From the NCBI RefSeq assembly GCF_001306055.1, contig NZ_LGHJ01000012.1:240001-272000 (forward strand): 32,000 nucleotides of DNA. The letters run 5' to 3'. Below are positions 6,256 to 31,342 of this stretch, in pieces. Each line of letters opens with the position of its first letter. Within the stretch, counting starts at the first letter, position 1. Position numbers and translations under genes: made by a program. The notes below the pieces were generated by a model. That model was not told where the DNA came from, ran no database searches, and saw only the letters and a program-made list of their open reading frames with translations. The stretch comes from Bellilinea caldifistulae (GTDB lineage Bacteria; Chloroflexota; Anaerolineae; Anaerolineales; Anaerolineaceae).

Positions 6256-7575
6256 TTATTTTCTGACAAGCGGCAGGTAAACCAGCTCAGCATTGGCGCT
6301 GAACCAGACCCTGTCACACTGCGCCCACACCCCGGCAACCACCTCACCACTGGCGGCCATCTCTCCGCCGGAATTATCCGAACTGCATGATTCGGAATAA
6401 ATCAGACGCTCCCCTTTGATCGGGTCATAAATAAACACCTGCCGTGGTTCGCTGGACTGGGGCTGCCTTTTGTAAGCCATCACAAAACCTCCGCCGGCCG
6501 GCACCATCTCCAGTTCGCGTTCCGAATAGGTGTTATTGGTGATTTGCGTAATCATACCCGCCGCATCCCGCAGCCAAACCTCGGAAGTAGCCGAAATGGT
6601 GTTGTTCCTCAAAAAGCCGATCAGGTAGGCATTGTTCACCCCAACCAGATGCACATCCCCCAGCCGATAGGCACCGCCGGACAGTGTCAATTTCATTTCC
6701 CCACTCCAATCGGTGTTGTCCACTTTGATGTTCTGGTGGTAAATCTCATCATCACTGCCGGAATTATCCTTGACATAGGCAAACGCAACCCGCTCACTGC
6801 CGGCTGTTGAGTAGGTGGTAATGGCAGGCGGATTGAGCAGGTCGCTATCGGCGATCAGCAAGATGCGGTTTTGGGTCATGTTTCCGCTACCATCGGTGGT
6901 ACGGTTGGAGGCATACAGAACACGGCCGGTGCCCGGAGCGCCCCTGGCATACCAGATCACATGCAGGTAGCCGGCCGAATCAACCACACCTTCAACCGTT
7001 CTAACCATCGGGTCGGAGCTTTCCGAGTTCACTTTTCCTCTTTCACTTCCACTGCTCACTTTCTCATAACGCAGCGTGTACTGAGTACCTTCTTGTTTTG
7101 AATAGATCACATAGCCGGTACTGCCGCGGGTGATGACTTTGACTATCGGGCTGAAACTATCCGGGGGATTGTCAGAAAAATCTGGAGTACAGACAACATC
7201 CACTGATGAGGGATAAATCTTGATACAAATGCGGTACTTTGGGGATGAAGCGTCATACTTTTCGTACCACGCAAGGATTACAGTCCCATCAGCCAGCACA
7301 CCGATTTCAGGAGCGGCCGGCCACCAACCCGTTATGAGACGAATCGGCTGCTTATCCTCGATTATGCCCAATCTGGTACGCAGATAGACAAGTTGATGGG
7401 TAGTGGGATCTTCGCCGACGATATGTTTTGTACCCTGGGAATCCACCGCAATCGCCAGCAGATAATTGGCTGCCAGATCATTGAGGGGATGAGGGGGCAT
7501 GAAGGTGATTGTGCAGGCCGCCAACAGGCTGATTACAGCCACAAGGACACTGAATTTGAAAAGGTGCTTAAACAT
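6256..7575 (-). CDS. hypothetical lipoprotein, repeat-rich all-beta (propeller-like)
   Basis: Signal peptide plus lipobox (VISLLAAC). About 8 recurring strand motifs of the form G-x-hydrophobic-x-hydrophobic-aromatic (GTVILAWYEK, GYVIYSKQ, GYLHVIWYARG, RVAFAYVKDN, AYLIGFLRNN, GFVMAYKRQ, VVAGVWAQ) spaced about 45-60 aa apart. Confidence 0.7.
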   Translation of the reverse strand: MFKHLFKFSVLVAVISLLAACTITFMPPHPLNDLAANYLLAIAVDSQGTKHIVGEDPTTHQLVYLRTRLGIIEDKQPIRLITGWWPAAPEIGVLADGTVILAWYEKYDASSPKYRICIKIYPSSVDVVCTPDFSDNPPDSFSPIVKVITRGSTGYVIYSKQEGTQYTLRYEKVSSGSERGKVNSESSDPMVRTVEGVVDSAGYLHVIWYARGAPGTGRVLYASNRTTDGSGNMTQNRILLIADSDLLNPPAITTYSTAGSERVAFAYVKDNSGSDDEIYHQNIKVDNTDWSGEMKLTLSGGAYRLGDVHLVGVNNAYLIGFLRNNTISATSEVWLRDAAGMITQITNNTYSERELEMVPAGGGFVMAYKRQPQSSEPRQVFIYDPIKGERLIYSESCSSDNSGGEMAASGEVVAGVWAQCDRVWFSANAELVYLPLVRK

Positions 7576-7825
7576 AAAAAATCTCCCTTCGTCTGGTCAA
7601 CGGCGATGACCACCCCGTTTACCCCTACCCCTAAACGAGAAGAGATTTTGTGAACCCTCAATTAATAAAACCTGACTTGCTCAATTTCATAATACAACAA
7701 AATCAATGGATTATTTCTTAACAAATCGAGAGAATTTTGGACGGAACGGGCTGAAGATTTGCAGAAAGCAATTGAACCCTCGGCAGGTTGCCAAAGCGGG
7801 TCATCCGGTGTATAAAGAACCAAAT

Positions 7826-8908
7826 ATGACCTCAAAAGGACAATTTCACGCCGTCATCCTGTGGATTGCAGTCGGGGTTTTGCTTCTCGTTCAGGCAGGG
7901 CAGGCCAGCGCCGTAAAAATTACCGCCCCGCCCCTCAATCGTCTTCCGCAGGAAAGGCTTTGTACGGGCAGTTTTTTGCCGGTCAGTCTGCCTCTCACCG
8001 ATTTGGGCAACCATGAATACATCCGCATGGACGGCAACTCGACCGGTTTTACAGGCGGCCTGTACCCCAACGGCGAAAACCAGCCCCCTGCCGCTCACTG
8101 GCTTGCCGGCAGGCTCATTGCTCAGCAGATTGTCCCGCTGGATTCAAACGGCAGTCCCGATTTTCGCAACGGCAAAATTGGGATGATTTCGGTGGGTATG
8201 TCGAATACGGCAATGGAATTTTCCACCTTTCGCAGCCTGGTGATGACCGATAGCCGCCTGAATCCGCATCTGGTACTGGTCAACGGCGCCCAGGCCGGTC
8301 AGACGGCGGAGTACTGGCTGAGTCTCGATTCACCAACCTGGGAAGTGGTCAACCAACGCCTGGAATCCGCCGGTTTATCACCCCAGCAGGTTCAGGTAGT
8401 CTGGCTCAAGCTGACCCGCACCGGCGGTGGAAACTTCCCCCAAAAAGCCCAAACCCTGCAAGCCGACCTGACCACCATTGTCCAAAATTTAAAAGTTAAG
8501 TACCCGCAAGTCAAAATGGTCTTTCTTTCCAGTCGCACCCGTTCCTATACCTACTGGAACGGGCTCAGCCCGGAGCCGGCCGCATTTGAAAGCGGTTTTG
8601 CCGTCAAGTGGCTGATCGAGGAACAAATCAGCGGCACGCCGGACTTAAATTACGACCCTCAACGCGGAGCGGTGCGCGCGCCCTACCTGATGTGGGCAGC
8701 CTATCTGTGGGCTGACGGCATCAACCCCCGCGAGGATGGTTTTATCTGGCTGCCGGAGGATCTGGTGAGCGATTGTACTCACCCCTCGGACGCCGGCCGG
8801 TTAAAAGTAGCCCGGTTGCTTTTACAATTTTTTACCAGCGATCCGGCCGCAACCCCCTGGTTTTTGACTTCCTATCCGCTCTTTCTGCCGCTGGTAACCC
8901 ACCCGTGA
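7826..8908 (+). CDS. hypothetical secreted protein, possibly an SGNH-like hydrolase
   Basis: I chose the internal ATG at 7826, which gives a signal peptide ILWIAVGVLLLVQAGQASA. GMISVGMSNT resembles SGNH block I and DCTHPS resembles block V (DxxH). The CDS call is solid but the functional call is weak (about 0.35). Confidence 0.6.
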   Translation: MTSKGQFHAVILWIAVGVLLLVQAGQASAVKITAPPLNRLPQERLCTGSFLPVSLPLTDLGNHEYIRMDGNSTGFTGGLYPNGENQPPAAHWLAGRLIAQQIVPLDSNGSPDFRNGKIGMISVGMSNTAMEFSTFRSLVMTDSRLNPHLVLVNGAQAGQTAEYWLSLDSPTWEVVNQRLESAGLSPQQVQVVWLKLTRTGGGNFPQKAQTLQADLTTIVQNLKVKYPQVKMVFLSSRTRSYTYWNGLSPEPAAFESGFAVKWLIEEQISGTPDLNYDPQRGAVRAPYLMWAAYLWADGINPREDGFIWLPEDLVSDCTHPSDAGRLKVARLLLQFFTSDPAATPWFLTSYPLFLPLVTHP

Positions 8909-9537: not shown

Positions 9538-10305
9538 TCAGGATTGCTTTTTTGCCCGAGTTGGCTTGTCAGGGCGTTTTTTGGGCGGTGAAGTAACCGC
9601 TTCGTCCTCTTTTTCCAGTACAACTCGCAGTCTGGCAGCGCTTTGCACCTGAAAGACCAGCGTTTGACCGGATAATAAACTGGCTTCGCGGCGGTCAAAA
9701 CCTTTTTTACCCACCGAAACCAGCAAGGGTTGATCGGGGCGGTATGTGGAGGGCGGCCGCTCGCCTTTGGCTTTGGCGCCTTTTTCCACCTTTCCCTGCT
9801 CCGGCAAGGGCGGCATCACCACTTTGAGCGCCATCTCAGCTTTGTTCAAGAGATCGGCAACACGGTAAACGCCGGGACGCAGAGGAGTGACCGTAAAAAA
9901 GTCACCCGCCGGAATTTGTTCAGCGTGATTCAGGAGCACCTGTTTTTCCTTGCTACCCAGCCGAATAATCCGAACCTGGAAGGTGGAAACGCCTCGTGAG
10001 CTGTAAAAACCCAGCACCCCACCGGTGTGCAGCCGCAGGTCGGCATCCTCGCGACAGCAATCCCGTTCTGTTGGATTCTTAATCGTAGAGAGATCAAGAT
10101 TGTGCTGATACGGAGCATCCCCATCCACCACCGTGACCACCAGACGAAGTGGAGTACGGTTGGTGCGGCTGATGAATACCTCGTAATCCCCCGCTTCCTG
10201 GAAGTGATGGATCAAGGTAGAAAGCACGCTGATTTGGGTGCTATCGAAAGAGCGTTGAGCGAATAACGCCCGGTTCAATGTAGCTTGTTTTTGATTACTA
10301 GTCAT
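9538..10305 (-). CDS. hypothetical protein, gene 3 of a 3-gene operon (beta-rich, basic tail)
   Basis: GGAGG lies 7 nt upstream of the ATG and inside the end of the preceding gene, with a 3-nt intergenic gap. Two beta-rich halves are joined by a Lys/Pro/Gly linker (PPLPEQGKVEKGAKAKGERPPSTYRPDQP). C-terminal basic tail SPPKKRPDKPTRAKKQS. No family recognised. Confidence 0.8.
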   Translation of the reverse strand: MTSNQKQATLNRALFAQRSFDSTQISVLSTLIHHFQEAGDYEVFISRTNRTPLRLVVTVVDGDAPYQHNLDLSTIKNPTERDCCREDADLRLHTGGVLGFYSSRGVSTFQVRIIRLGSKEKQVLLNHAEQIPAGDFFTVTPLRPGVYRVADLLNKAEMALKVVMPPLPEQGKVEKGAKAKGERPPSTYRPDQPLLVSVGKKGFDRREASLLSGQTLVFQVQSAARLRVVLEKEDEAVTSPPKKRPDKPTRAKKQS

Positions 10306-10308
10306 CGC

Positions 10309-11283
10309 TTAACCTCCAACATCCGCTTGCACGACCATTTCGACATCATCTACCCGCACAAATAGATTGCGAACCGGAACGGTCACCGCCACCAGTTCAA
10401 CTGGCGAACCGCTCAACAGCACCGAAGTACTGATTTCTTTTGCCAGTACCTCCAGCGGGTCATCCACGCGGATCAACGGCACACACGCCCCGAAGAATTC
10501 ACCCACCAGTTGAATGAGCAGGTCTCCCAACCCAAAACTGATGTTGAACAAATCGCTCAGCCACTCGTCAATTTCATCGGGGATATCCAGCAGCCAGCGG
10601 ATGAAATCGGCAATACCGCCGATGATGGCGAGAATCAAATCGCGCACCCAGCCGCCGGGCAGCAGCGCCGTCACTGCGGCGGTCAGCGCGTTTTCAATCA
10701 GGTTGCCGACAATGTCGGCAAAGTCGAACAGGTCAAGGTCAATGAAATCCGGGTTGAGGAAAATATGCCACTGATTATGGTCAGGAAAGGGATCAATGAC
10801 GCTGGCGTTCACCAGTAAATCCCTCAACAAGCCGCAGGGGTCAATCAACGGCGGCGGTATACTGGCATCGTAATAGCGCACCACCGGACGTCCGGCGACG
10901 CTCAATTCCTGCGCCACAAAAGCGGCCAGATCCGGTGAAATGGACACATCCGGGTTGGCGGAGAAGACACACCAGCGCGGCAGACAGATATCCGGGAACG
11001 GCCACGGCATATCAATACATCCGCCGCCCACGCAAATTTCGGGAATATCCAGCCCAAGGGTGAACTGAAACATATCCCAGCGCACATCCAGTTCATCCAC
11101 CAGCACCGAATTGTCGGAGCGGAAATCCACACTGCCCCCTTCCAGATGCCCCTTGACGTGATAGCCGGCGGTAAACGGGCCAAAACTGGTGCTGTCCTGT
11201 GCTTCCCAACGGATGCTATCGCGCAGCACCACAAACAAACGCTGAAAAGCACTTTCGGATACGGCAACGGTCAGGTCAGCCAT
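10309..11283 (-). CDS. hypothetical acidic Cys-containing protein, gene 2 of a 3-gene operon
   Basis: AGGAGG upstream of the ATG, with only 2 nt between the upstream stop (TAA) and the ATG. The N-terminal block DLTVAVSESAFQRLFVVLRD parallels gene 1. Contains a hydrophobic/amphipathic stretch LTAAVTALLPGGWVRDLILAIIGGIADFIRWLL. No signal peptide and no family recognised. Confidence 0.8.
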   Translation of the reverse strand: MADLTVAVSESAFQRLFVVLRDSIRWEAQDSTSFGPFTAGYHVKGHLEGGSVDFRSDNSVLVDELDVRWDMFQFTLGLDIPEICVGGGCIDMPWPFPDICLPRWCVFSANPDVSISPDLAAFVAQELSVAGRPVVRYYDASIPPPLIDPCGLLRDLLVNASVIDPFPDHNQWHIFLNPDFIDLDLFDFADIVGNLIENALTAAVTALLPGGWVRDLILAIIGGIADFIRWLLDIPDEIDEWLSDLFNISFGLGDLLIQLVGEFFGACVPLIRVDDPLEVLAKEISTSVLLSGSPVELVAVTVPVRNLFVRVDDVEMVVQADVGG

Positions 11284-11285
11284 GA

Positions 11286-12224
11286 TTATGCACCTCCTGT
11301 GATGATCAATTTCATAAATGCTTTGAGCTGATCCTCTTCAACCGCCGGGTTGTTGGGCACATCCGCCGGAACAGCAGAGGGTTGCAGCGTCACGGTCCTG
11401 CCGAGCGTCAAACCCATTTCCTGAAATTCTTTATTGACGTCCAGCACCATTTTTTCCAGCGGGATGATCAGCCGCGGCAGGATGCCCAGCTTGAGAACGG
11501 TGGTCAGGTAACATTCGATGGCGCTTTCCATGTCGTTGGGTTGCATGTCCACGATTTCCAGACCGTCCAGGCGGGTTTTGAGCCAGATTTGCTGGGAGCC
11601 GGGTACGCTACCCCACTCAAAATGTCCCACAGCAAACAGTTCCAGACAGAAGCAGATCAGCTGGCGGGTTGGCAGGGGAATGGTGCGGGGTCTTTCACGG
11701 TTATCCACTGCTGCCACGGGGGGAGTGTAGTGAGTGGAGATCCCCGGAACGCGCTCTTTGATTTCGCCGATGGCCAGTTGCTGCTGAGAAACCAGGAAAC
11801 GTTCGATGAGTGGCAGCAATTCGTCAATGATCTCCTTTGATGGACAGTCAATTCCCATACAGCCTTTCAGGCGCAGGGCAAACCGCTGAGCCGGCAGCGC
11901 CCCCAGTTCCGGCGGCAGCCCAAAAACATTGCCGGGGTGAAAATCAATCTGGGCATCGGTCAATTGCAGACAAAAGTTCAAACCAATTGGCACAGGTGCC
12001 CCCAGAATGGGCAACGGTTCCTGCTCGGTAAACAGCGGATTTTTCGCCTTCAACACCCTCTCATCCACCTCGAACTTTACGCAAAACAATCCCGCATTGT
12101 TGTGAAAAAAGGGTGTTGCGTAATTGAACAGCGAGGGACGCTGGCGCATGATGTGGCGCACCAGCCGGTTGATGCCGTCCTCATGGACGGCGCCGAACAG
12201 ATCTGAATGATCGGTAAACGGCAT
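11286..12224 (-). CDS. hypothetical protein, gene 1 of a 3-gene operon (paralogue of gene 2)
   Basis: I chose the ATG at 12224 (MPFTDHS...) because GGAGG sits 5 nt upstream; the ORF-track start at 12248 would place that SD inside the coding region. N-terminal block DLFGAVHEDGINRLVRHIMR. No signal peptide and no family recognised. Confidence 0.8.
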   Translation of the reverse strand: MPFTDHSDLFGAVHEDGINRLVRHIMRQRPSLFNYATPFFHNNAGLFCVKFEVDERVLKAKNPLFTEQEPLPILGAPVPIGLNFCLQLTDAQIDFHPGNVFGLPPELGALPAQRFALRLKGCMGIDCPSKEIIDELLPLIERFLVSQQQLAIGEIKERVPGISTHYTPPVAAVDNRERPRTIPLPTRQLICFCLELFAVGHFEWGSVPGSQQIWLKTRLDGLEIVDMQPNDMESAIECYLTTVLKLGILPRLIIPLEKMVLDVNKEFQEMGLTLGRTVTLQPSAVPADVPNNPAVEEDQLKAFMKLIITGGA

Positions 12225-12262
12225 AGGAACCTCCATTTTTCTGAACAAGGGTGGAATAGCCC

Positions 12263-12285
12263 TCTCAACTGTGAGAAAGTTGAGA
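12263..12285. promoter_or_regulatory. perfect 8-bp inverted repeat (TCTCAACT-N7-AGTTGAGA) about 40 nt upstream of the 3-gene operon start
   Basis: Read directly from the sequence. Its position between the leader hairpin and the SD of the operon suggests an operator or RNA stem. Function unknown. Confidence 0.3.
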
Positions 12286-12330
12286 TGCTCGACTTTGCTG
12301 TGGATCGGGAATGGAGCAGGGGTGGAGAAT

Positions 12331-12358
12331 CAAAACACGCGGGTTCATCCCCGCGTGT
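12331..12358 (-). terminator. GC-rich hairpin followed by TTTT on the minus strand (intrinsic-terminator-like) upstream of the 3-gene operon
   Basis: ACACGCGGG (12335-12343) pairs perfectly with CCCGCGTGT (12350-12358) around a 6-nt loop. The plus-strand AAAA at 12332-12335 reads as a U-tract on the minus strand. The tract is only 4 U, so this is a moderate call. Confidence 0.4.
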
Positions 12359-12395
12359 CTCTCGTCAATATATGGATAATAACCCAGTCGAGTTG

Positions 12396-12424
12396 TTGAC
12401 TATTTTTATCATCAATATCATAAT
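12396..12424 (+). promoter_or_regulatory. sigma70-like promoter reading rightward (TTGACT-17-CATAAT)
   Basis: -35 TTGACT at 12396-12401, exact 17-nt spacer, -10 CATAAT at 12419-12424, in an AT-rich (~33% GC) spacer. Confidence 0.4.
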
Positions 12425-12588
12425 ACTACTATCTCATGCTCATTTCAACCCCTAATTTTTGTCGGGTTTGTAACAAAAACGGTTGGCAAATTCATGACTG
12501 GTAGTGTCCGGGGTTTAAAGACCAACCATCCGCTACATGTCCAGTTTCTCAATCTGTTTTACTAAAACCCACCAGCTTTGTGACAGAC

Positions 12589-12802
12589 TCATCCATGCTC
12601 CTCTTTTGCAAAAAAGGTGAGGAAGATTTCGATCTCAGCGACAACCGTTTCTGCCGGATGACATTTGTTATGATAAAGAATATACTGCCTGACCCAGTGA
12701 AGATAGGTTTTTTTCAATGCTGTAAGGATAATGCTTCAAGCGAATGGCATCTCAAAGCTGGTCGAGAAGTTTTTTGGGTTTTGGAGAGAATGGATCGGGC
12801 AT
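12589..12802 (-). pseudogene. N-terminal stump (~70 codons) of an IntI-type / Phage_int_SAM_4 tyrosine recombinase, inactivated
   Basis: The minus-strand translation is MPDPFSPKPKKLLDQL*DAIRLKHYPYSIEK, then a frameshift in an A7 run, then TYLHWVRQYILYHNKCHPAETVVAEIEIFLTFFAKEEHG*. It matches the remembered IntI1 N-terminus [53 protein letters not shown]. The TGA at 12752-12754 replaces the conserved Arg. No catalytic domain follows. Confidence 0.7.
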
Positions 12803-12957
12803 AAAAACAGCTAAAACTTTTCCATGATTGGATATATAATCCATACAGTAATAATTCTACTCAGAGCATATCTGACAACCCGGCATCATAGCAGTATAAC
12901 CCGCTTTTTTGGTCTGGATATATGGCAAAAATGCAGTGTATCAGAAGTCCGTTAATA

Positions 12958-12964
12958 GTTAGGC
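12958..12964 (+). other. integron core-site-like heptamer GTTAGGC (GTTRRRY), candidate attI crossover point
   Basis: Exact match to GTTRRRY. It lies 155 bp upstream of the integrase-stump ATG on the opposite strand and 42 nt upstream of the helicase ATG. GTTAGGCGC is the exact reverse complement of GCGCCTAAC at 17148-17156. Confidence 0.5.
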
Positions 12965-12999
12965 GCCTCACGATGTAGGCAATCCATGGCTGGTGTTCG

Positions 13000-15900
13000 A
13001 TGACTGAACCTCAATCTGTAGACTTGAATCCGAAGATTCGCCGCACCGTCAATGCCGCGCTCGTTTTATGGACCCGCCGACTCATCGACTACTCGCGAGC
13101 CAACTCCCTCCTCTTCTACCGCGACCTCAAGGTTGGCACTCTCGACCTAACTGCGGAGACGGAGGCTGTGGACCGTCTGCTGGCAGGCGACAAACTCACA
13201 GTTGAGTCACTGGTCTCGACAGGCCGGTACGCAGAGAGCCCTGACCCCGCCGTACGTACCCAAGCCGAGGACGAGGTACGCCAGAAGGTACGGAGCGCGC
13301 TCATCTCGCTCCTGCGCAAGGCGTTGAGCAACCTCGAGGAGAAAGGCATCGAGACGCTCCACCTGGCAATGGGGATGGCTACATGGCCCGCCGACGATGG
13401 TGGGCGGCCGTACGATGCGCCCGTGCTGCTGCTACCGGCCCGAATCGAGGCACGCGGCCGGGCGGGCGACGACCTGCGACTCGCGGTTGCGGGCGAGCCA
13501 CAAATAAACCCGGTACTTCTGTATGTGCTCGAGGAGAAATACGAGATCCGCATCGACGCGTCCTCAGTGCTGAGCATGTGCGGCGGCGAAGACGAATCAG
13601 GGCAGTGTCGTATCGACCTAGAGAAAGTGTTTGAGCACATCGAACATGCGGCTACAAGCGTACCGGGCTTCAGGATAACGCAGCGTGTGGTCCTGGCTAA
13701 CTTTCAGTACGCGAAGATGGCTATGGTCGAGGATCTGAAGAGGAACGGGGACATTATAGCTTCGAGCACCATCGTTGCGGCTGTCGCCGGCCATTCGCTT
13801 TCACGACAGAAGCTGGCCCAAGCGGCGATCGATATCGCGCCAGCCCAGATCGATGACCGCCCGGCGTCCGACGACTACCTGGTGCTCGATGCGGACTCCA
13901 CGCAGCACCGCGCCATCGTGCTTGTCGGCAAAGGGCAGAACGGTGTCATACAAGGGCCACCGGGAACTGGCAAGAGCCAAACCATCTCGAATCTCATCGC
14001 TCAGAGCGTGGCCGAGGGGCGCCGCGTGCTCTTCGTCGCACAGAAGCGGGCGGCGCTGGATGCGGTCATCAAGCGGCTTAGCCATCCGGATGTGGGGCTT
14101 GGTCATCTAGTGCTCGATCTACACGGTGCATCTGTGTCGCGGAAGGAGGTGATGGCGCGGCTTGCAGATGCATTGGAGCAGATACGTATTGCGCTGCCTG
14201 CTGACGGGGTCGAGGCACTTCACCGCGAATTTGAGGTTCGGCGCAAGCAATTAAACGAACACGCACGTCGGGTAAACCAGATTCGCCAACCGACGGGACT
14301 TTCTGTGAACCAGATGGTTGGCAGACTGCTCCGCCTGCCGGCAGCGGCGAAGTCCACGCTTCGACTCCGTGGACAGACACTGGCCGCGCTCACGGCTGAG
14401 CGCGCAAGCGAGGTAAAGCAGTGGATCCAACAGGCTGCTGCCAACCCGACTCTCTTCCTCGGCACAGATCCCTCGTCGTGGAACAACGCGGATATAAGGG
14501 ACGGTCGCGGCGCACAGGAAGCCCTAGACCTGGCCACCAAAGCAGCCAACGAGCTCTGGCCTGAGTTCGAGCGGCTTCTCGAACAGGTAGTGAACCAGCT
14601 TGGCGTCCGGCCACCGAATACGCTCAGTGAGGTTGCTGTGTTCCTGTCCCTTCTCCGTGATGCGGGAAGCATTCGCCAGCAGTACAGTGCCGAGTTTTTC
14701 TCATCAAAGCCTGGCGAGTTGGGGACGGCACTCCAGCCCGCGGCGGCCGGATGGGTCACCCGCGCCTGGGCGTTCCTGAGCAACCCGGTGTACCGCGCTG
14801 CGCGCAAACGCCTGCTCGCATTGCGCACGGAACCGGCACCGGTCGCAACGTTGCGAGAAGAGGCGTTACGAGCCGAGGATATCCTCCGCCGTTGGCAGAC
14901 CCTTGCCCCAACCTCGGCCGTGCCTGTTCGGGCGGATGCTGAAATGGAACTAAGTGCTGCGTTCAACGCCCTTGACGAGGTGACAAAGAAACTTGGGGCC
15001 ATGACGGAAGCAGGGCCGTTTGACGGCATGCAGCTTTCGTCGGCGGGCTCACGGTTGCGGGCGCTCGCAGACGACCGACAGACCCCGTTCCGCTTACCAA
15101 GCATCTACGATCTTCGATCGCTGTTCAGCAAGGCGAATCTCGTCGGTTTTATTGATGATCTCCGCAAGCACGGTGTTGCTGCCGAGCACTGGTCGGCGCG
15201 ATTCGAGTACATCTGGCTTTACTCGGCGCTGGAGCAAGCGTTGGCATCCGATCCATCTCTTGCTTCATTCAACGGCCGAGCACACGAACAGGTCATCGAG
15301 GAGTTCAAGCGTTTGGATCATGAACGCATCCGCCTCGCTGCCCAGCGCGTGCGCAGAGTCCACGCCGAGCGAGCGATCGAGGCGATGAACCGCCACTTCG
15401 ATCAGGCAGATCTGGTTCGGAGAGAGGCTGCCAAGAAGTCACGACACATTCCGCTGCGCGAATTGTTGGCCCGCGCGCCTGATGTTCTCACTGGGATCGC
15501 ACCTTGCTGGGTCGCAAGCCCACTTTCGGTTAGCCAACTGCTGGATGGCAGCAAGAGGCACTTCGACCTCGTCATCTTCGACGAGGCAAGTCAGATCCTT
15601 CAAGAGGAGGCGATCCCCGCGCTCTACCGCGCGGAGCAAGTGGTTGTTGCCGGTGATCGGCACCAATTGCCTCCCACGACGTTCTTTGTGACAGCTGTCG
15701 AGGGCGAGGACGAAAGCCTCGATGACAATGAGACGGACCAGCCTGTCGCCGCGATTGGTGGGTTTGAGAGCTTGCTCGACACGCTGGAAGCCTTCCTGCC
15801 GAACTGGCTCTTGGAGTGGCACTACCGTAGCGAGGACGAGCGGCTCATCACTTTCAGCAACACCCATGTGTACACGGGGCGCCTCGTAACCTTTCCGGGC

Positions 15901-17106
15901 GCGCGTGGTCAGGAGGCAATTCGGCACATTCTTGTACCGCACGACCCCGCGTTAGGTGGACAGGAGGAAAGTGCATCGCGGGAAGTCGAGGAGGTTGTGA
16001 GTCAGGCGATTCTGCACGCGGAAACGCGGCCACACGAGTCCCTCGGTGTCATCACTATGGGCATCAAGCACGCAAACCGCATACAGGCTGCTCTAGACCG
16101 CGCCCTCGACCTCCGGCCCGATCTGTCGGATTTCTTCTCACTGGACCGCGAAGAGCGTTTCTTTGTCAAGAACCTAGAGACCGTGCAGGGCGATGAGCGT
16201 GATGCCATCATCTTGTCGATCGGCTATGGCAAAACGGCAAATGGCGATCTGCCACACCGCTTTGGTCCGCTCACGCAGGACGTCGGTTACCGCCGCCTGA
16301 ACGTGGCCATCACTCGGGCGAGGCGCCGGATGTGCGTCATAAGTTCCTTTTCGCACGATGAGATCGATCTGAATCGCTCCGGGAGTCGGGGCGTACAACT
16401 GCTCAAAGCGTATCTGCAGTACGCTGCTAGTGGAGGCACGCGTCTGCCTGAGGACGAGAGCGCGGGAGAAGTTAGTCTCAATGCATTTGAGGCCGATGTC
16501 CGCGACGCTTTGGAGGCTCAGGGCGTCAAGACGCGACCACAGTTTGGCGCGTCTCGCTATCGCATTGATCTGGTCGCCATGCATCCAAAGAAGCCGGGTC
16601 GGCCGGTTCTCGCGATCGAATGCGATGGGGCATCTTATCATTCGAGCGCCACTGCGCGGGACCGCGATCGACTTAGGCAAGCCCATCTCCAGCGGCTGGG
16701 CTGGCGATTCCACCGCATCTGGTCGACCGACTGGTTCTACCACCGCGAGCAAGAGATTGAGCGCGCAATTGCGGCATACGAGGAGGCTGTTCGCTGGGCG
16801 GATTTATCGGACGCCGGTGGCCGCACCCCGCAAGCTGTGGGCAGTACTCAGCCCATGAGGCAGGCTCAGCAGCAACCAACCGGGCGGCAGCGGGGACCAC
16901 GGCCGCCCGTGCCGGTGCGCGAGACAATCGACCAATACAGCAACCGCGAATTGCGGCAGATCGCCGCGTGGGTCACATCCGACGGTTTGCTACGTACGGA
17001 CGAGGAACTCATCCGCGAGATTTTTGAGGCACTGCCATTTGAGCGGCTAGGCAGCAGAATAAGAGAGCGCCTTAAGACAGTCGTGAAGGCCGTGCGACGG
17101 CATTAG
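13000..17106 (+). CDS. SF1 (Upf1/Dna2-like) helicase fused to a Vsr/DUF559-like PD-(D/E)xK nuclease domain and a DUF3320-type C-terminal tail (DUF4011-family architecture)
   Basis: Walker A GPPGTGKSQT (nt 13954-13983). Motif II LVIFDEASQ (DEASQ at nt 15580-15594). Motif III VVAGDRHQLPPT. Also WHYRSEDERLITFSN, TVQGDERDAIILS and motif VI RRLNVAITRARRRMCVI. Nuclease-like block RYRIDLVAM...VLAIECDGASYHSS...RLGWRFHRIWSTDW (about nt 16477-16749). C-terminal DQYSNRELRQIAAWVTSDGLLRTDEELIREIFEAL. About 530 aa are inserted between Walker A and motif II, as in DUF4011 helicases. Confidence 0.9.
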   Translation: MTEPQSVDLNPKIRRTVNAALVLWTRRLIDYSRANSLLFYRDLKVGTLDLTAETEAVDRLLAGDKLTVESLVSTGRYAESPDPAVRTQAEDEVRQKVRSALISLLRKALSNLEEKGIETLHLAMGMATWPADDGGRPYDAPVLLLPARIEARGRAGDDLRLAVAGEPQINPVLLYVLEEKYEIRIDASSVLSMCGGEDESGQCRIDLEKVFEHIEHAATSVPGFRITQRVVLANFQYAKMAMVEDLKRNGDIIASSTIVAAVAGHSLSRQKLAQAAIDIAPAQIDDRPASDDYLVLDADSTQHRAIVLVGKGQNGVIQGPPGTGKSQTISNLIAQSVAEGRRVLFVAQKRAALDAVIKRLSHPDVGLGHLVLDLHGASVSRKEVMARLADALEQIRIALPADGVEALHREFEVRRKQLNEHARRVNQIRQPTGLSVNQMVGRLLRLPAAAKSTLRLRGQTLAALTAERASEVKQWIQQAAANPTLFLGTDPSSWNNADIRDGRGAQEALDLATKAANELWPEFERLLEQVVNQLGVRPPNTLSEVAVFLSLLRDAGSIRQQYSAEFFSSKPGELGTALQPAAAGWVTRAWAFLSNPVYRAARKRLLALRTEPAPVATLREEALRAEDILRRWQTLAPTSAVPVRADAEMELSAAFNALDEVTKKLGAMTEAGPFDGMQLSSAGSRLRALADDRQTPFRLPSIYDLRSLFSKANLVGFIDDLRKHGVAAEHWSARFEYIWLYSALEQALASDPSLASFNGRAHEQVIEEFKRLDHERIRLAAQRVRRVHAERAIEAMNRHFDQADLVRREAAKKSRHIPLRELLARAPDVLTGIAPCWVASPLSVSQLLDGSKRHFDLVIFDEASQILQEEAIPALYRAEQVVVAGDRHQLPPTTFFVTAVEGEDESLDDNETDQPVAAIGGFESLLDTLEAFLPNWLLEWHYRSEDERLITFSNTHVYTGRLVTFPGARGQEAIRHILVPHDPALGGQEESASREVEEVVSQAILHAETRPHESLGVITMGIKHANRIQAALDRALDLRPDLSDFFSLDREERFFVKNLETVQGDERDAIILSIGYGKTANGDLPHRFGPLTQDVGYRRLNVAITRARRRMCVISSFSHDEIDLNRSGSRGVQLLKAYLQYAASGGTRLPEDESAGEVSLNAFEADVRDALEAQGVKTRPQFGASRYRIDLVAMHPKKPGRPVLAIECDGASYHSSATARDRDRLRQAHLQRLGWRFHRIWSTDWFYHREQEIERAIAAYEEAVRWADLSDAGGRTPQAVGSTQPMRQAQQQPTGRQRGPRPPVPVRETIDQYSNRELRQIAAWVTSDGLLRTDEELIREIFEALPFERLGSRIRERLKTVVKAVRRH

Positions 17107-17147
17107 AGAACTGGGAGTGTACCATGATGAGCACGGATACACGCCTA

Positions 17148-17209
17148 GCGCCTAACAACAGCATGTAGCAGACGGCACTGCACGCTACCGCTGATGCCAG
17201 CCGTTAGCC
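17148..17209 (+). other. attC-like recombination site (R'' GCCTAAC ... R' GTTAGCC) between the two cassette ORFs
   Basis: GCCTAAC (17150-17156) fits RYYYAAC. GTTAGCC (17203-17209) fits GTTRRRY at 6 of 7 positions. The unit is 60 bp. Internal imperfect pairing is GCAT/ATGC (17161-17164 with 17194-17197) and GTAGC/GCTAC (17165-17169 with 17184-17188), with unpaired bases on one arm. Confidence 0.45.
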
Positions 17210-17231
17210 CGCCTTGAGGCAGAAGAGACGA

Positions 17232-17839
17232 ATGGTTCAAATACCAACCATACAAGATATTGAAGCATCCAGACAAGATTTTGAGGCAAATGAGCCGCGG
17301 GATCTCTTTTATCATACTGCAACGGAGTTGGTGTCGCTCGCGCGCTGGAAGGCAGGTCATCGTTTAGTGTTGCCGAAGCATTATTCGTGCTCCTTCAGAT
17401 ATGGAACAAGACGTTCTATCAATACAGAAAATTCGATGGACAACATTTTGCCGAGATAGAGCGGCTTATCAATGACCACTGTTTGATGCTCATCGCTTTC
17501 AGACAACGCTCCATAGAAGGTTTCGACCAGGAGCAGGAGGATGAAGGAAAAGTTAAGCACGTTTTCAAGGCTTTCGAGGAGGTTCTCGGCCCTGTAGGTG
17601 CTGCAAAGTTTTTGCATCTGTTGGCACCGCTTTTCTTTCCGCTTTTGGACCGCGTCATAGCCGAGGCTTACAACCTTCCGCTAGTGAAGATTGGTACCAA
17701 TGCCGACAAGTACCGTCGTTTTATGCGAATTGTGAAGGAGCAGATTAAAACCCTTGGCGGGGAGCAAACTATTAGTCGAAATCCATTGAAAGCGATAGAC
17801 GAGTACAATTACTGCAAGTACACCAAAGAATGGATATGA
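17232..17839 (+). pseudogene. ~200-aa hypothetical gene split by a 1-nt frameshift (second cassette ORF)
   Basis: The frame starting at 17232 reads MVQIPTIQDIEASRQDFEANEPRDLFYHTATELVSLARWKAG and then degenerates. The -1/+2 frame is open from 17294 and reads protein-like from about 17360 (SFSVAEALFVLLQIWNKTFYQY...GPVGAAKFLHLLAPLFFPLLDRVIAEAY...). The switch point is about 17355-17365. A sequencing error is an alternative explanation. Confidence 0.55.
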
Positions 17840-18073
17840 TTAAGTCGTGCGACAATCTAACACGTGGTTCCAGCCGCCCCGCTCCGCTCGCTGCACTTGC
17901 TCCGCGTGCGGCTGAACGCAAACCGTTTCCGCAGCAAAATTTGTGCGCTCCGCCACGCCCGTACCGATTGGCTTCTTAATCCGCTGCTGCTCCTGTTGAA
18001 AATCACCTCCTTTACCTCCAAATTTCGCCCAGATGAGAGGCGTTCCAGGCAACCGATGCTACCCCTACCAGCA

Positions 18074-18119: not shown

Positions 18120-19298
18120 ATGAGTGTGATGAAAAAACTGCTCTTACTGGTATGGATGGGATTGCTGCTGGGGTTCGTACCACCCACCCCCGCACAGGCA
18201 GAATCCTTTTTTCCGCAAATAACGGCCGAATCCGCCGGCAAGCCGCTTTGTCTGCCGGGGGTCTACCTGCAAGAACCGCAGGACTGCCTGCCGCTCGGCC
18301 CGGCACAACGCCTGACCGAACTGGCCCAGACCACCGCCTACCATTATCCCGATGCGCCGCTGCCGGCTTATCGCCCCGCCCCGGATCTGACCCGCGCGCC
18401 GGTCAACATTGCCCGCATCAACCTGCCGGAAAACGAGAAAGTACCGCTGTACGCCACGTTTGAGGACGCCGTCAGCGGCAACAACCCAACCCGCTTTATT
18501 GACCCGGGCCAGTTACGCTATGTTTCCTACATCGCCGTGGAGTACTATAACAATAAGCCGTGGGTTCGCCTGCGTTCCGGCGAATGGCTGCGCGCCTCGC
18601 CGGTGGCGTATTCCTCTTTTCAAGGTCTGATTTTTAAACAAACCCCGAACCACAACTTTGGCTGGATCATGGACACCGTCGAAGTCAGGTCTGCACCCGG
18701 TTACAACGCTCCAACCACCGGCAAGACCCTTTACCGTGAAAATGTCGTCCCAATTTACGCCGTTCAATCAGCCAACAACACCGACTGGTTCATGATCGGC
18801 GTAAACGAGTGGGTCGAGCGCCGTTACATCCGCCAGGTGATGGTCAACCCCACACCCCCCGAAGGTGTGACCAACGACCGCTGGATTGAAGTCAACCTCT
18901 TTGAACAAACCCTCGCCGTTTATGAAAACCGTCAGCTGGTTTTTGCCACGCTGATCGCCAGCGGCGGCGAACCCTTCTTCACCCGCCCCGGCCTGCACCA
19001 GATTTACCAGAAAAAAGAACTGGAAACCATGAGCGGCGCTTTTGAAGCCGACCGCTCCGACTATTACTACCTGCAGGATGTGCCGTGGACTATGTACTTT
19101 GATCAGGCGCGCGCCCTGCACGGCGCTTACTGGCGTACGCTGTTCGGGTATGCCGGGACACACGGCTGTGTCAATTTATCCATCGGCGATTCGAAGTGGC
19201 TGTTCGATTGGGCAAGAGAGGGCGACTGGGTTTATGTGTGGGATCCTTCCGGGCAAACCCCCACCGACCCGAATTTCTACGGCGCCGGCGGAGCCTAG
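18120..19298 (+). CDS. L,D-transpeptidase (YkuD/ErfK domain) with N-terminal signal peptide
   Basis: Catalytic block HGAYWRTLFGYAGTHGCVNLSIGDSKWLFDW (the H...HGC motif). Signal peptide KKLLLLVWMGLLLGFVPPTPAQA. The start could be ATG 18120 or ATG 18129. Confidence 0.9.
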   Translation: MSVMKKLLLLVWMGLLLGFVPPTPAQAESFFPQITAESAGKPLCLPGVYLQEPQDCLPLGPAQRLTELAQTTAYHYPDAPLPAYRPAPDLTRAPVNIARINLPENEKVPLYATFEDAVSGNNPTRFIDPGQLRYVSYIAVEYYNNKPWVRLRSGEWLRASPVAYSSFQGLIFKQTPNHNFGWIMDTVEVRSAPGYNAPTTGKTLYRENVVPIYAVQSANNTDWFMIGVNEWVERRYIRQVMVNPTPPEGVTNDRWIEVNLFEQTLAVYENRQLVFATLIASGGEPFFTRPGLHQIYQKKELETMSGAFEADRSDYYYLQDVPWTMYFDQARALHGAYWRTLFGYAGTHGCVNLSIGDSKWLFDWAREGDWVYVWDPSGQTPTDPNFYGAGGA

Positions 19299-19366
19299 AC
19301 CAGCTGAATTTCCAGCATCGCGTCCGAACGAACGACCTTGACCCTTTTCTGTCAGGTGTCATCCTG

Positions 19367-19395
19367 TTGGCTCTCCAACGGCGGGCAAGTATAAT
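19367..19395 (+). promoter_or_regulatory. sigma70-like promoter TTGGCT-17-TATAAT immediately upstream of the antiporter start codon
   Basis: -35 at 19367-19372, exact 17-nt spacer, perfect -10 at 19390-19395. The ATG at 19404 is only 8 nt past the -10 element. Confidence 0.5.
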
Positions 19396-19403
19396 TCATT
19401 GGA

Positions 19404-20861
19404 ATGATGAATGAATATGTTCTGATTGCAGCCGCCGGTCTTTTGCTGATCAGTGTCCTGGTCAGCAAAATTTCGGATCGGTTCGGTGTACCGGCCTTGC
19501 TGCTGTTTCTTGGTCTGGGCATGCTAGCCGGCTCCGATGGGCCAGGTGGCATTTACTTTGACAATCCGGCGATTGCTCAGTTTGTGGGGGTGATTGCGCT
19601 GGTCTTGATTTTGTTTTCCGGCGGTTTAGACACGGATTTCAAGCAGGTACGGGCGGTTTTGAAAGAGGGGATCCTGCTCTCCACGCTGGGCGTCTTAATC
19701 ACCGCTCTGATAACCGGTTGGATTTGCATCTTCCTTTTGGATTTACCGCCGCTGGTCGGCCTGTTGTTAGGCGCTATTGTATCCTCCACGGATGCAGCTG
19801 CCGTTTTTTCGGTTTTACGCTCCAAAGGCATCAGCCTGAAAGGCAACCTGAAACCACTGCTGGAACTCGAATCCGGCAGTAACGACCCGATGGCCATCTT
19901 CCTGACGATTGGACTGATCCAGTTAATTCAATCCCCGGAGCAATCTGCGCTGAGCTTAATCAGCTCATTTTTTCTGCAAATGCTGCTTGGCGGCGTCATC
20001 GGCGTTGTGATGGGGCGGCTGATGGGGTGGCTGATCAATCACATCCGCCTGGGGTATGAAGGCCTTTACCCGGTGCTCAGTCTTGCGCTCGTTTTCCTGA
20101 CCTTTGGAGTCACCAGCATCCTTGGCGGCAGCGGTTTTCTTGCCGTTTATGTGACCGGCATTGTGCTGGGCAACCGCGAATTCATCCACCGCCGCAGTTT
20201 ACTGCGCTTTCATGACGGGCTGGCATGGCTGATGCAAATTGCCATGTTCCTCACCCTGGGATTGCTGGTTTTCCCATCCCGACTGCCGGCCGTAGCCGGT
20301 AGCGGACTGCTGATTGCAGCGGGCTTGATGTTCCTGTCCCGGCCGTTAGGTGTCTTGCTCTCCCTCATCGGCAGCCGTTTCAGCCTACCTGAAAAAGTTT
20401 TTGTCTCGTGGGTAGGATTACGCGGAGCCGTGCCGATTATTTTGGCAACTTTCCCCTTGCTAGCACAAATCCCGCAGGCAGAATTGATTTTCAACATCGT
20501 CTTTTTCGTGGTGCTCACCTCCGTCCTGTTGCAGGGTACAACCATCACACCGGCAGCCCGCTGGCTGAAGCTGGATGCTCCCGCCTTACCGAAACGCATC
20601 TACCCGATTGAGTACACCCCCGTTGGTGGATTCAAGAGTGAACTTAAAGAACTGGCCGTCCCCCCGAATTCCCCCATGGCGGGTAAAGCCATTGTGGAAC
20701 TGGGGCTGCCGGATGATTTTCTGGTGGTACTGATCGCCCGCCAGAACGATTTTGTCATGCCCAGCGGCGGTACGGTCATTCAACCGGGTGATACCCTGCT
20801 TGCCCTGGCTGACTCAAAAACCTTCGATGAGGTCTGCCGGCGATTATGCCCGCCATCCTGA
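19404..20861 (+). CDS. K+/H+ antiporter, CPA1 family (NhaP2/CvrA-like) with C-terminal TrkA-C (RCK_C) domain
   Basis: N-terminus LIAAAGLLLISVLVSKISDRFGVPALLLFLGLGMLAGSDGPG is typical of NhaP2. About 12 TM segments. C-terminal GKAIVELGLPDDFLVVLIARQNDFVMPSGGTVIQPGDTLLALAD is TrkA-C-like. Confidence 0.9.
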   Translation: MMNEYVLIAAAGLLLISVLVSKISDRFGVPALLLFLGLGMLAGSDGPGGIYFDNPAIAQFVGVIALVLILFSGGLDTDFKQVRAVLKEGILLSTLGVLITALITGWICIFLLDLPPLVGLLLGAIVSSTDAAAVFSVLRSKGISLKGNLKPLLELESGSNDPMAIFLTIGLIQLIQSPEQSALSLISSFFLQMLLGGVIGVVMGRLMGWLINHIRLGYEGLYPVLSLALVFLTFGVTSILGGSGFLAVYVTGIVLGNREFIHRRSLLRFHDGLAWLMQIAMFLTLGLLVFPSRLPAVAGSGLLIAAGLMFLSRPLGVLLSLIGSRFSLPEKVFVSWVGLRGAVPIILATFPLLAQIPQAELIFNIVFFVVLTSVLLQGTTITPAARWLKLDAPALPKRIYPIEYTPVGGFKSELKELAVPPNSPMAGKAIVELGLPDDFLVVLIARQNDFVMPSGGTVIQPGDTLLALADSKTFDEVCRRLCPPS

Positions 20862-30418: not shown

Positions 30419-31318
30419 TTAATCCTCTTCCGGCGGCGGCGCAGCAGCATCCCCATACGCCATCAGCAGGGCAAACTGGGTAATTGCGTTGTACACATCC
30501 TCTAACTGGCTCTGTAAAGTCAAGTCACTGACAAAGTCCGGCTCTCCCAGTCGCTTGAGCAGCGGCTGGGGGATTTCGGGGGCGCGCACCTGAACCGAGA
30601 AATCGCGGATATGTTCTCCAATCTGCCAGAAATGTTCAATCTGTTCTTCCAGCGGACTGTGTTCTTCCTTCGGGCGGGGCGGCGGTTGATCATCCACCTG
30701 CAAGGTTGGCGGTTCGCCGTTCGAACGCCGGGCGCGCAGCGAGGCGAGAATCTGTTCCTGCGAACGCCCGCGCATGCGGAAGAGCAGGAAGGGATCTTCG
30801 TCGAACCGCTCCCCCAGAATGTAATGTACCGCGGCAATGTGTTTGCAGGGGTTGGCTTTATCGGGGCAGGAACAGGTGGTAATCAAATCGTGGTGCGTTT
30901 GCGGAAATAGACTGACCCCAGCGCTGGCAAAGGCTTCCTCGATATTTGCCGGCATTTCCCCGGCCAGCAGTTGCGCCGCAAAAATGGCCTGATCGGCCAG
31001 CACATTCAGCACCTTGCTCCACTGGGCGTTGGTCAGGTGGGTCAATCGGATGGTAACCCGGTAGGGTTTGGGGCGGGAGCCTTGCACCCGCGCTGTGATG
31101 CCTTCCTTATCCTCATCAATGGAAATTACCTGACCCTGCCGTGCGTAGTACTTGCCGCGCGCCAGCCGCGGCGCCGAAACCAGATTTTCCATTGCTGCAA
31201 TCCAGCGGCGCGCCCACCAGTTTTTTCCAAAAGATCCCCTTACGCTGTGAGCGCGGATGCCGCCGCGCACCTTGCGCGGGCTTAACCCCCATCCCCAGCC
31301 TTCCATTTCATCGTCCAT
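30419..31318 (-). CDS. SWIM zinc-finger protein (partner of the SNF2 helicase)
   Basis: SWIM motif CSCPDKANPCKHIAAVH (CxC-xn-C-xH). N-terminal FGKNWWARRWIAAMENL is typical of SNF2-associated SWIM proteins. It starts 24 nt after the SNF2 gene stop. Confidence 0.85.
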   Translation of the reverse strand: MDDEMEGWGWGLSPRKVRGGIRAHSVRGSFGKNWWARRWIAAMENLVSAPRLARGKYYARQGQVISIDEDKEGITARVQGSRPKPYRVTIRLTHLTNAQWSKVLNVLADQAIFAAQLLAGEMPANIEEAFASAGVSLFPQTHHDLITTCSCPDKANPCKHIAAVHYILGERFDEDPFLLFRMRGRSQEQILASLRARRSNGEPPTLQVDDQPPPRPKEEHSPLEEQIEHFWQIGEHIRDFSVQVRAPEIPQPLLKRLGEPDFVSDLTLQSQLEDVYNAITQFALLMAYGDAAAPPPEED

Positions 31319-31342
31319 AAACTCCGTTGCCTCTCCCTTGGA

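Follow-up and report, generated by a model that had tools for sequence, protein, structure and literature searches.

A 4.2-kb gene cassette with a putative defence helicase-nuclease in a degenerate integron of Bellilinea caldifistulae

Can an integron gene cassette be as large as 4.2 kb, and, if so, what might its protein product do? These questions are raised by a locus within a 32-kb window (a term used here for the whole stretch of DNA that was analyzed), which comes from the chromosome of Bellilinea caldifistulae (Anaerolineae, Chloroflexota) and which contains an open reading frame (ORF) whose 1,368-residue product is 100% identical to a B. caldifistulae protein on a 3.7-Mb contig. Several independent lines of evidence establish that window positions 12959-17203, which include this ORF, are a genuine integron gene cassette (cassette 1). 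The locus as a whole probably is a wrecked chromosomal integron with a mobile cassette, the cargo of which would be a single-protein helicase-nuclease--a shorter relative of the anti-phage proteins Hhe and ProA--that functions in defence. The cassette and its parts are as follows:

12959-17203, + strand: cassette 1, 4,245 bp, consisting of a 41-nt conserved leader, a single ORF and a 60-nt attC
13000-17106, + strand: ORF encoding the 1,368-residue helicase-nuclease, of a PDC-S37 / Hhe / ProA-related family
17148-17211, + strand: attC1, with R'' GCCTAAC at 17150-17156, R' GTT at 17203-17205 and two extrahelical bases on the 5' arm

The recombination points of the cassette are exact: the unit opens between G12958 and TTAGGC, and it closes between G17203 and TT. 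The ORF is co-oriented, its 5' untranslated region (UTR) being 41 nt long and its stop codon being separated from the R'' box by 43 nt. An Rfam scan of the window returned zero matches, and, since no attC family is among those results, attC models were built anew; covariance models were used because single-sequence folding, which gave unremarkable z-scores for the attC candidates, is uninformative for imperfect attC hairpins. The first of these models is based on 13 attC-like sites located directly after homologous genes in other genomes (that is, the window itself was excluded) and assumes canonical R''-L''/L'-R' pairing; 86% of its cells are paired versus 22-46% when the partners are slid, and six of its pairs show compensatory changes. 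Within the entire 32-kb window this model finds only one significant match, at 17148-17211 on the + strand (44 bits, E 2.2e-9), where a broader model based on 36 sites likewise scores 49 bits (E 1.6e-11). Because attC1 contains four non-canonical pairs it is somewhat degraded in comparison with the sites of its relatives, which score 55-84 bits (versus 49 bits here).

The same boundaries are found by comparing loci. The 41-nt leader, which starts GTTAGGCGCC..., is common to at least nine other loci, in which it is kept from GTTAGGC onward and where the likeness ends at the point between G and TT. Similarly, the closest relative found by blastn (locus L021; the homologous loci are given L numbers throughout) is 90.6% identical at the nucleotide level and aligns over window positions 12955-17210 only; blastn aligned no locus with window sequence on the left of position 12955 or on the right of position 17210. 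Moreover, the cassette's own 5' end (TTAGGCGC) is perfectly complementary to its own R'' box (GCGCCTAA); the bases that are now 3' of attC1 are those of the next cassette and lack complementarity to R''. Rejoining the cassette ends yields a full-length bottom-strand hairpin (-16.9 kcal/mol, z -1.96), as compared with -12.2 kcal/mol (z -0.04) for the present junction. A preliminary description of this DNA had proposed that the unit is an integron cassette containing one ORF with ~40-nt UTRs; the attC models, the homology breakpoints, the leader and the integrase remnant described next all bear this proposal out.

What remains of the integron around cassette 1--including an integrase pseudogene and a frameshifted second cassette, neither of which was part of the preliminary description--consists of these features:

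12598-12802, - strand: intI pseudogene remnant (N-terminus of a tyrosine recombinase), ~65 codons with one in-frame stop and one frameshift
12658-12686, + strand: sigma-70-like promoter match ATGACA-17-TATACT, inside the intI remnant and facing the cassettes
12803-12958, + strand: attI-like junction region, which extends from the intI start to the first recombination point (between G12958 and T12959)
17204-17925, + strand: probable cassette 2, 722 bp, 48% guanine plus cytosine (GC), bounded by attC1 and attC2
17852-17933, + strand: probable attC2, beginning 13 nt past the stop of the cassette-2 ORF

The integrase remnant is matched by tblastn at 12598-12772 (- strand) with an IntI1 sequence, used only as a probe, over residues 15-72 and with an E-value of 2e-6; its stitched 65-residue translation matches the Pfam family Phage_int_SAM_4 (PF13495) at 43.2 bits (cutoff 27, E 5.4e-11). 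Everything past residue ~72 is gone. The orientation of the remnant is divergent from that of the cassettes, which matches the arrangement in classical integrons. The promoter-like site inside it agrees with the consensus at 10 of 12 positions and thus is a possible equivalent of the cassette promoter, Pc, this being a pattern match only and one for which Chloroflexota promoters may differ. The non-coding stretch to which these features belong, 12251-12958, has the lowest GC content in the window (41%) and has promoter-like sites on both strands (12658-12686 on the + strand and 12878-12851 on the - strand); the attC models found no site within 12803-12958.

A second cassette probably follows the first one. 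Its attC2 is the second-best match of the broad 36-site model in the window (17 bits, E 0.015), which is marginal taken alone, though both its strand and its location are as expected. The DUF6308-like ORF of this cassette has a frameshift, the frame of the N-terminal piece being 17231-17459 and that of the remainder 17387-17839. No functional intI was seen beside the cassettes: there is the remnant only, and no recombinase is encoded by any of the larger window ORFs that were scanned. Hence, the locus is a degenerate integron, consisting of an intI pseudogene, an attI-like junction and cassettes 1 and, probably, 2, or, in other words, a probable cluster of attC sites without integrase (CALIN) with an intI pseudogene.

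What, then, does the cassette encode? Profile searches and structure prediction divide the protein into four parts:

13078-13530, + strand: DUF4011 (residues 27-177; Pfam PF13195, 58 bits)
13894-16347, + strand: predicted superfamily 1B (SF1B, Upf1-like) helicase core (residues 299-1116; Pfam AAA_11, PF13086, and AAA_12, PF13087)
16486-16773, + strand: Vsr-type PD-(D/E)xK nuclease, MTES_1575 restriction endonuclease (REase; residues 1163-1258; Pfam PF18741, 116.8 bits, cutoff 38.2)
16942-17100, + strand: predicted C-terminal three-helix module (residues ~1315-1367) after a disordered linker, the model helices having predicted local distance difference test (pLDDT) values of 85-93

The helicase core has motifs I, Ia, II, III, V and VI, in the form of the Walker A sequence GPPGTGKS (residues 319-326, including K325), LFVAxKRAAL, DEASQ (residues 861-865), GDxxQLPPT, QGDER and RRLNVAxTRA, which are at least 90-98% conserved in a set of 116 sequences. 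The closest sequences in the PDB are those of IGHMBP2 (E 3.7e-17), DNA2, Sen1 and Upf1; these point to SF1B, the 5'->3' class of helicases. An insertion of ~535 residues between motif I (K325) and motif II (DEASQ) has zero Pfam matches. The AlphaFold model of residues 1-300 (13000-13899; pLDDT 79), which includes DUF4011, consists of a long helix, a beta-sheet core and helical bundles, and has no meaningful PDB match (best Foldseek E 0.046, with a template-modelling (TM) score of ~0.1).

For the nuclease the structural evidence is more specific. The AlphaFold model of residues 1131-1368 (pLDDT 77) matches the Vsr-like catalytic domain of the homing endonuclease I-Bth0305I with a Foldseek TM score of 0.78 (normalized to the target) and a probability of 1.0, other matches being TnsA and Hjc, so that the predicted structure confirms a Vsr-like fold; Toxoplasma mitoribosomal large-subunit proteins are matched as well (best E 7.8e-4). 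Candidate catalytic residues are D1190, E1207, D1209 and H1214 (RIDL...IECDGASYH), which are invariant in the family. The Pfam match to DUF559 is weak (18.4 bits). The tail matches DUF3320 (PF11784) at 13.9 bits (E 0.055), which is under the Pfam cutoff of 25. MTES_1575 REase was described as a Vsr-fold nuclease by Anantharaman et al. 2013 (PMC3710099), and the MTES_1575 protein has, in residues just past the Vsr-REase domain, a winged helix-turn-helix (wHTH) that overlaps DUF3320 (PMC3710099); judging from the model, the three-helix tail here probably is such a wHTH.

These results agree with the preliminary description as regards DUF4011, an Upf1/Dna2-class SF1 helicase with an insertion of ~530 residues, and a Vsr/DUF559-like nuclease, the motif of which had been singled out for a conservation check. 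The DUF3320-type tail that it had also named fares less well in profile searches, although a three-helix module is indeed predicted there and the likeness is plausible. All of the helicase motifs and nuclease residues are kept across the 116 sequences, down to 36% identity, and the ratio of nonsynonymous to synonymous substitution rates (dN/dS) is 0.15-0.24 (an L005 value of 0.76 was ignored as a probable artefact of misplaced gene ends); the gene is under purifying selection.

The protein belongs, judging from profile scores, to the candidate defence family PDC-S37. This family (PDLC05009) is the best defence profile in PADLOC, with a score of 954 bits (E 3.4e-287), and the four segments of the protein--DUF4011, helicase, nuclease and tail--are colinear with positions 5-1444 of its 1550. 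The PADLOC profile for Hhe scores 489 bits, and the Mokosh profiles MkoA and MkoC, which match the helicase motifs only, score 88 and 70 bits, respectively. In NCBIfam the top match is NF058533, 'anti-phage protein ProA' (929.8 bits, equivalog cutoff 1500), and Hhe (NF042953) scores 657.3 bits (equivalog cutoff 2000); because these scores lie under the cutoffs, the protein is best described as a relative, rather than an equivalog, of Hhe and ProA. By homology, therefore, a role in defence is suggested for the 1,368-residue protein. Such a role, which the preliminary description had put forward with the same reserve, is still the best supposition; what must be given up is its statement that the architecture has no assigned function, since this is the architecture of Hhe, and PDC-S37 and ProA are the top matches.

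How widely is this cassette distributed? More than 3,000 homologues at E <= 1e-10 occur among the candidates examined, and clustering at 50% gives 9,050 representative clusters at E <= 1e-30. Close copies, with 70-89% amino acid identity, occur in several phyla, several of them on contigs of 0.1-5 Mb. They include copies from the following sources, listed with their amino acid identity to the window protein and with the record concerned, several being from metagenome-assembled genomes (MAGs):

Nitrospira sp. Kam-Ns4a: 88%, 3.9-Mb record
Rokubacteria: 87%, 1.1-Mb contig
Chthonomonadales: 87%, MAG contig
Gammaproteobacteria MAG: 82%, 682-kb contig
Kallotenue: 80%, 2.4-Mb contig
Planctomycetaceae: 79%, 137-kb contig
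Thermoanaerobaculia: 79%, MAG contig

Between the window gene and the gammaproteobacterial copy dS is only 0.58, which is far from saturation and, across phyla, implies horizontal transfer. This spread of the cassette across phyla is likewise an addition to the preliminary description. An attC is found 10-45 nt past the stop codon in 15 of the ~44 distinct loci with a readable 3' flank, and six more retain only the first 8-25 nt of an attC (GGCGCCTA...), after which they diverge. In a neighbor-joining tree the copies that bear attC make up one large derived clade, with decayed copies interspersed among them, and the deepest branches are without attC. This pattern is consistent with the gene having been captured into a cassette once or a few times and having then spread and repeatedly become fixed.

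Homologous units lie between attC sites in L036/L070 (which represent the same array), L009 and L002, and also in L025; intI fragments adjoin the cassette in L009, L002, L021 and L022. Integrase C-terminal fragments on the cassette strand were seen just upstream in L021 (5672-5863), L022 (1538-2014) and L026 (1001-1087), and may represent either an 'inverted integrase' layout or rearranged remnants. The L036 array, on a 615-kb contig, has at least 11 attC sites (L070 4330-17178) and starts right where a type III restriction (ResIII) gene ends; the 4.3 kb examined upstream of it showed no integrase. The gammaproteobacterial array, L009, contains a cassette for an Mrr-type restriction endonuclease (15805-16674) and two cassettes of 541 bp (15250-15791 and 18980-19521), each with an ORF of 151 codons; their equal size suggests a duplicated cassette. 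Both ends of the 4,254-bp contig L069 are inside attC sites. It was considered as a circularized cassette and rejected, there being no terminal overlap and the contig breaking within attC at each end.

Copies without attC often adjoin restriction-modification (R-M) genes (of type I in Nitrospira and of type III in L070 and L073), and the neighbors of non-cassette copies also include toxin-antitoxin genes and insertion sequence (IS) elements. In Nitrospira sp. Kam-Ns4a (L067 1-19858), for instance, the 88% identical homologue has an HsdM N-terminal fragment on one side and an HsdR gene on the other; an IS110 transposase, an MqsA-like antitoxin and several very small ORFs are also present, and attC was not detected there. 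It looks as if an island has split a type I R-M locus. In the Rokubacteria MAG (L016 ~10030-10120) the C-terminal tail of another copy (..IRELFDELPFGRLGSRIRARL..) is found directly upstream of the homologue, which suggests tandem paralogues, and a third copy, 70% identical, is on another contig (L006). More distant relatives, with 25-40% identity, occur on 474 plasmids, of which 207 are conjugative; within a phage collection there was a single distant match, to an unannotated 11-kb 'Bacteriophage sp.' record.

The size of the cassette has consequences for how such genes are found. The inter-attC intervals in arrays carrying relatives have a median of 728 bp (n=29), versus 4,245 bp for cassette 1, which is thus as unusually large as had been claimed at the outset; the only large intervals among those 29 are two that represent homologous cassettes (4,261 and 4,302 bp) and a third of 3.7 kb. 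The latter (L054 10215-13912) contains an NmrA/DUF2867 ORF along with others, and is either a second oversized cassette or an interval in which the models overlooked an attC. According to Cury et al. 2016 (PMC4889954), the largest known cassettes are of ~2 kb, and IntegronFinder clusters attC sites separated by less than 4 kb (PMC4889954). Cassette 1 is thus about twice the quoted upper size range and just past the 4-kb window of the standard tool. Because the flanking attC sites are 4.2 kb apart (3566 to 7800 in L036; 9968 to 14168 in L009), default IntegronFinder runs would split the array. A 2024 survey that used IntegronFinder defaults described integron defences as small and 'streamlined' (bioRxiv 10.1101/2024.07.02.601686); a cassette beyond the 4-kb clustering window would have been unseen by surveys that called integron defences compact, and PDC-S37-type cassettes presumably were overlooked for this reason.

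More generally, there is about an even chance that integrons mobilize cassettes well above ~2 kb, that the 'streamlined' rule for defence genes is in part a detection artefact, and that large one-protein defences belong to the cassette pool. If so, then a 4.25-kb helicase-nuclease cassette, which integrons have carried through six or more bacterial phyla, is among the largest single-gene cassettes, and its arrays are split by default clustering, so that the gene is not annotated as cargo of a cassette. And if integrases do move 4-kb units, then the cassette pool is broader than thought, and integrons would plausibly be a way for large defence genes to spread between phyla of environmental bacteria, the groups concerned being Chloroflexota, Nitrospirota, Rokubacteria, Planctomycetota and Gammaproteobacteria.

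How would such a cassette and its product work? The anatomy of cassette 1 suggests that it moved through IntI recombination of the folded attC bottom strand between G and TT; in this genome it would no longer be movable by a local integrase, and its position as the first cassette would allow expression from a promoter in the intI/attI region. The SF1B core might load onto single-stranded DNA, a 5' flap or a fork of a phage or plasmid genome that is invading or replicating, and then translocate 5'->3' with ATP (K325, D861/E862), while DUF4011 and the ~535-residue insertion might serve as sensing or autoinhibitory parts. The Vsr-type nuclease (D1190, E1207, D1209, H1214), aided by the wHTH-like DNA-binding tail, would nick or cleave the DNA tracked by the motor, with the outcome that replication of the invader would stop.

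Several points weigh against this reading. The substrate, polarity and trigger ascribed to the protein are predictions from its helicase class alone; the NCBIfam equivalog cutoffs are missed both for ProA (930 < 1500) and for Hhe (657 < 2000); and about half of the close homologues are without a detectable attC. Since Pseudomonas aeruginosa has a large DUF4011 gene as part of its conserved core (PMC10250203), defence need not be the role of all family members. Finally, with the integrase dead, attC1 degraded and the neighboring cassette a pseudogene, the gene is possibly no more than a silent relic; that its ORF is intact and its dN/dS low speaks, however, for its continued use. This last concern amounts to a distinct explanation, namely, that the cassette was frozen after integrase loss and is a fossil in this genome that is neither expressed nor selected. 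The truncation of intI to ~65 codons, interrupted by a stop and a frameshift, the four broken pairs of attC1 and its score under those of relatives, the frameshift in cassette 2, and the fact that the Shine-Dalgarno-like GAGG of relatives is ATGG here are all what one would expect of a fossil; but it is unlikely to be one given that its 4.1-kb ORF is intact and keeps every catalytic motif, that dN/dS is 0.24 versus the nearest relatives, and that it is the first cassette, behind a promoter-like site.

The core-gene status of the P. aeruginosa DUF4011 gene (PMC10250203) also invites a housekeeping interpretation, in which a Dna2-like helicase-nuclease for DNA repair or replication restart merely rides in cassettes. 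The closest solved relatives, IGHMBP2, DNA2, Sen1 and Upf1, are in keeping with this, as is the Kallotenue copy, which is located among ordinary genes, beside a methylated-DNA methyltransferase-type gene and polA. This interpretation is rather improbable, though, in the face of a patchy cross-phylum distribution at 70-89% identity, flanks that differ in nearly every locus, locations in integron arrays and beside R-M and toxin-antitoxin genes, and best profile matches that are all to defence families. Closer to the preferred reading, with which it overlaps and from which it differs only in the target, is the notion that the protein is directed at plasmids or mobile DNA of other kinds, or is an abortive-infection toxin causing damage to host DNA, instead of degrading phage DNA directly. 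Competition between elements would fit the occurrence of relatives with 25-40% identity on 474 plasmids (207 conjugative), and the sequence gives no indication of self/non-self discrimination; the validated relative, Hhe, was scored on phages, however (bioRxiv 10.1101/2022.06.16.496414), and this alternative has a small probability. There is virtually no probability left for the idea that the 'core sites' are chance matches around an ordinary, horizontally acquired gene. True, GTTRRRY heptamers are common, the folding z-scores at the present junction are unremarkable and there is no intact integrase in the window; but the attC model E-values, the covariation, the exact homology breakpoints, the arrays elsewhere and the intI remnant all contradict this idea, which is refuted. 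The preferred reading--a mobile cassette for a defence helicase-nuclease in a wrecked integron--retains most of the weight.

The genes on either side of the integron remnant are ordinary chromosomal genes: the left flank includes a phosphate ATP-binding cassette (ABC) transporter, MsrA and several ORFs without a family match, and the right flank a YkuD transpeptidase, a Na+/H+ exchanger, a Cys/Met pyridoxal phosphate (PLP) enzyme and a subtilase. To the left of the remnant there are five ORFs of 255-439 codons, at 6256-7575 (-), 7706-8908 (+), 9538-10305 (-), 10309-11283 (-) and 11286-12248 (-); Pfam and PADLOC scans of these five were empty, as was an NCBIfam scan of the trio at 9538-12248, which forms a tight co-directional block terminating at the integron. 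The last of the trio (320 residues) was considered as an integrase candidate and, having zero matches in Pfam, NCBIfam and PADLOC, was rejected. Near the right edge of the window, a gene for a SWIM zinc-finger protein (30419-31981, -) adjoins a Snf2-type helicase gene that leaves the window, and the C-terminal domain of the latter has generic PADLOC matches of the ZorD/DpdE/DrmD type. GC content, which had been put at 62-70% for the cassette and taken as a sign of foreign origin, measures 60.7% for cassette 1 versus 56.3% for the window, and the GC content at third codon positions (GC3) of the ORF, 0.68, is inside the range of neighboring genes; with a difference of only 4 points and GC3 within the host range, this weak argument was rejected.

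Among known systems the closest in design is Hhe, a one-gene anti-phage system that combines a helicase with a Vsr endonuclease (bioRxiv 10.1101/2022.06.16.496414, citing Gao et al. 2020) and that protects against lambda, T3, T7 and PhiV-1, an activity that is lost in the nuclease mutant E1731A (bioRxiv 10.1101/2022.06.16.496414); the Hhe of Halomonas is annotated as a DUF4011 protein (PMC11232893). Both proteins have DUF4011, an SF1 AAA_11/AAA_12 helicase and a Vsr-type nuclease in the same order within one polypeptide, and E1731 of Hhe probably corresponds to E1207 here, this being approximate, as profile positions 1652-1771 map to residues 1131-1251. They differ in length, the Hhe profiles having ~1,800-1,900 positions versus 1,368 residues here, and only positions 422-567 and 1270-1771 of the profile align. 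ProA is similar in that the C-terminal 720 residues of the window protein align to positions 1092-1827 of its 1903-position profile, and different in that the N-terminal half here is shorter by ~450 residues. PDC-S37 is a candidate family for which a literature search found no published test--nor did that search locate the paper defining ProA or anything else on PDC-S37--and, to our knowledge, it was described without an integron-cassette context. The possibility that the protein is a 'streamlined', integron-specific Hhe was rejected: the top 150 of the 9,050 cluster representatives are colinear with it and mostly 1,320-1,400 residues long, whether in or out of cassettes, so that a length of ~1.35 thousand residues is the norm for the subfamily and not a result of integron-driven shortening.

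Other helicase-nucleases are less similar. The Upf1-like helicases IGHMBP2, DNA2, Sen1 and Upf1 have motifs I-VI in common with the window protein, and DNA2 also joins a nuclease to this class of helicase; the nuclease of DNA2, however, is an N-terminal PD-(D/E)xK/Fe-S domain, whereas here it is C-terminal and of the Vsr type, and DUF4011 and the 535-residue insertion are additional. Nhi and Mokosh, in which a helicase and a nuclease are likewise combined for anti-phage activity, had been named as comparisons at the outset. The comparison with Nhi is inexact inasmuch as Nhi has a DUF2075-type helicase with an N-terminal HsdR-like nuclease and a length of ~610 residues (PMC11232893), and no Nhi model is among the PADLOC matches here. 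As for Mokosh, MkoA matches the helicase motifs only (at the 88 bits given above), and the phospholipase D (PLD) nuclease that this system uses is absent here according to Pfam.

Both parts of the system described here thus are of kinds already known, namely, Hhe-like helicase-nuclease defence candidates and defence-carrying integron cassettes. What may be undescribed is the integron-cassette context of a PDC-S37-type gene, that is, the meeting of a catalogued defence candidate akin to Hhe and ProA with the integron cassette system, a combination that may be unreported. For biochemical work on the Hhe-like class, the 1,368-residue protein offers a compact and highly conserved representative. 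Defence genes are known from integron cassettes (bioRxiv 10.1101/2024.07.02.601686, 10.1101/2024.07.02.601719), both in sedentary chromosomal integrons, which act as biobanks, and as the BRiC of mobile integrons; as in those cassettes, the cargo here is a single gene of the defence type that is co-oriented with the array. The surveys of integron defences concern small systems, whereas the cassette here is 4.25 kb in size and its hosts belong mostly to non-Vibrio environmental phyla.

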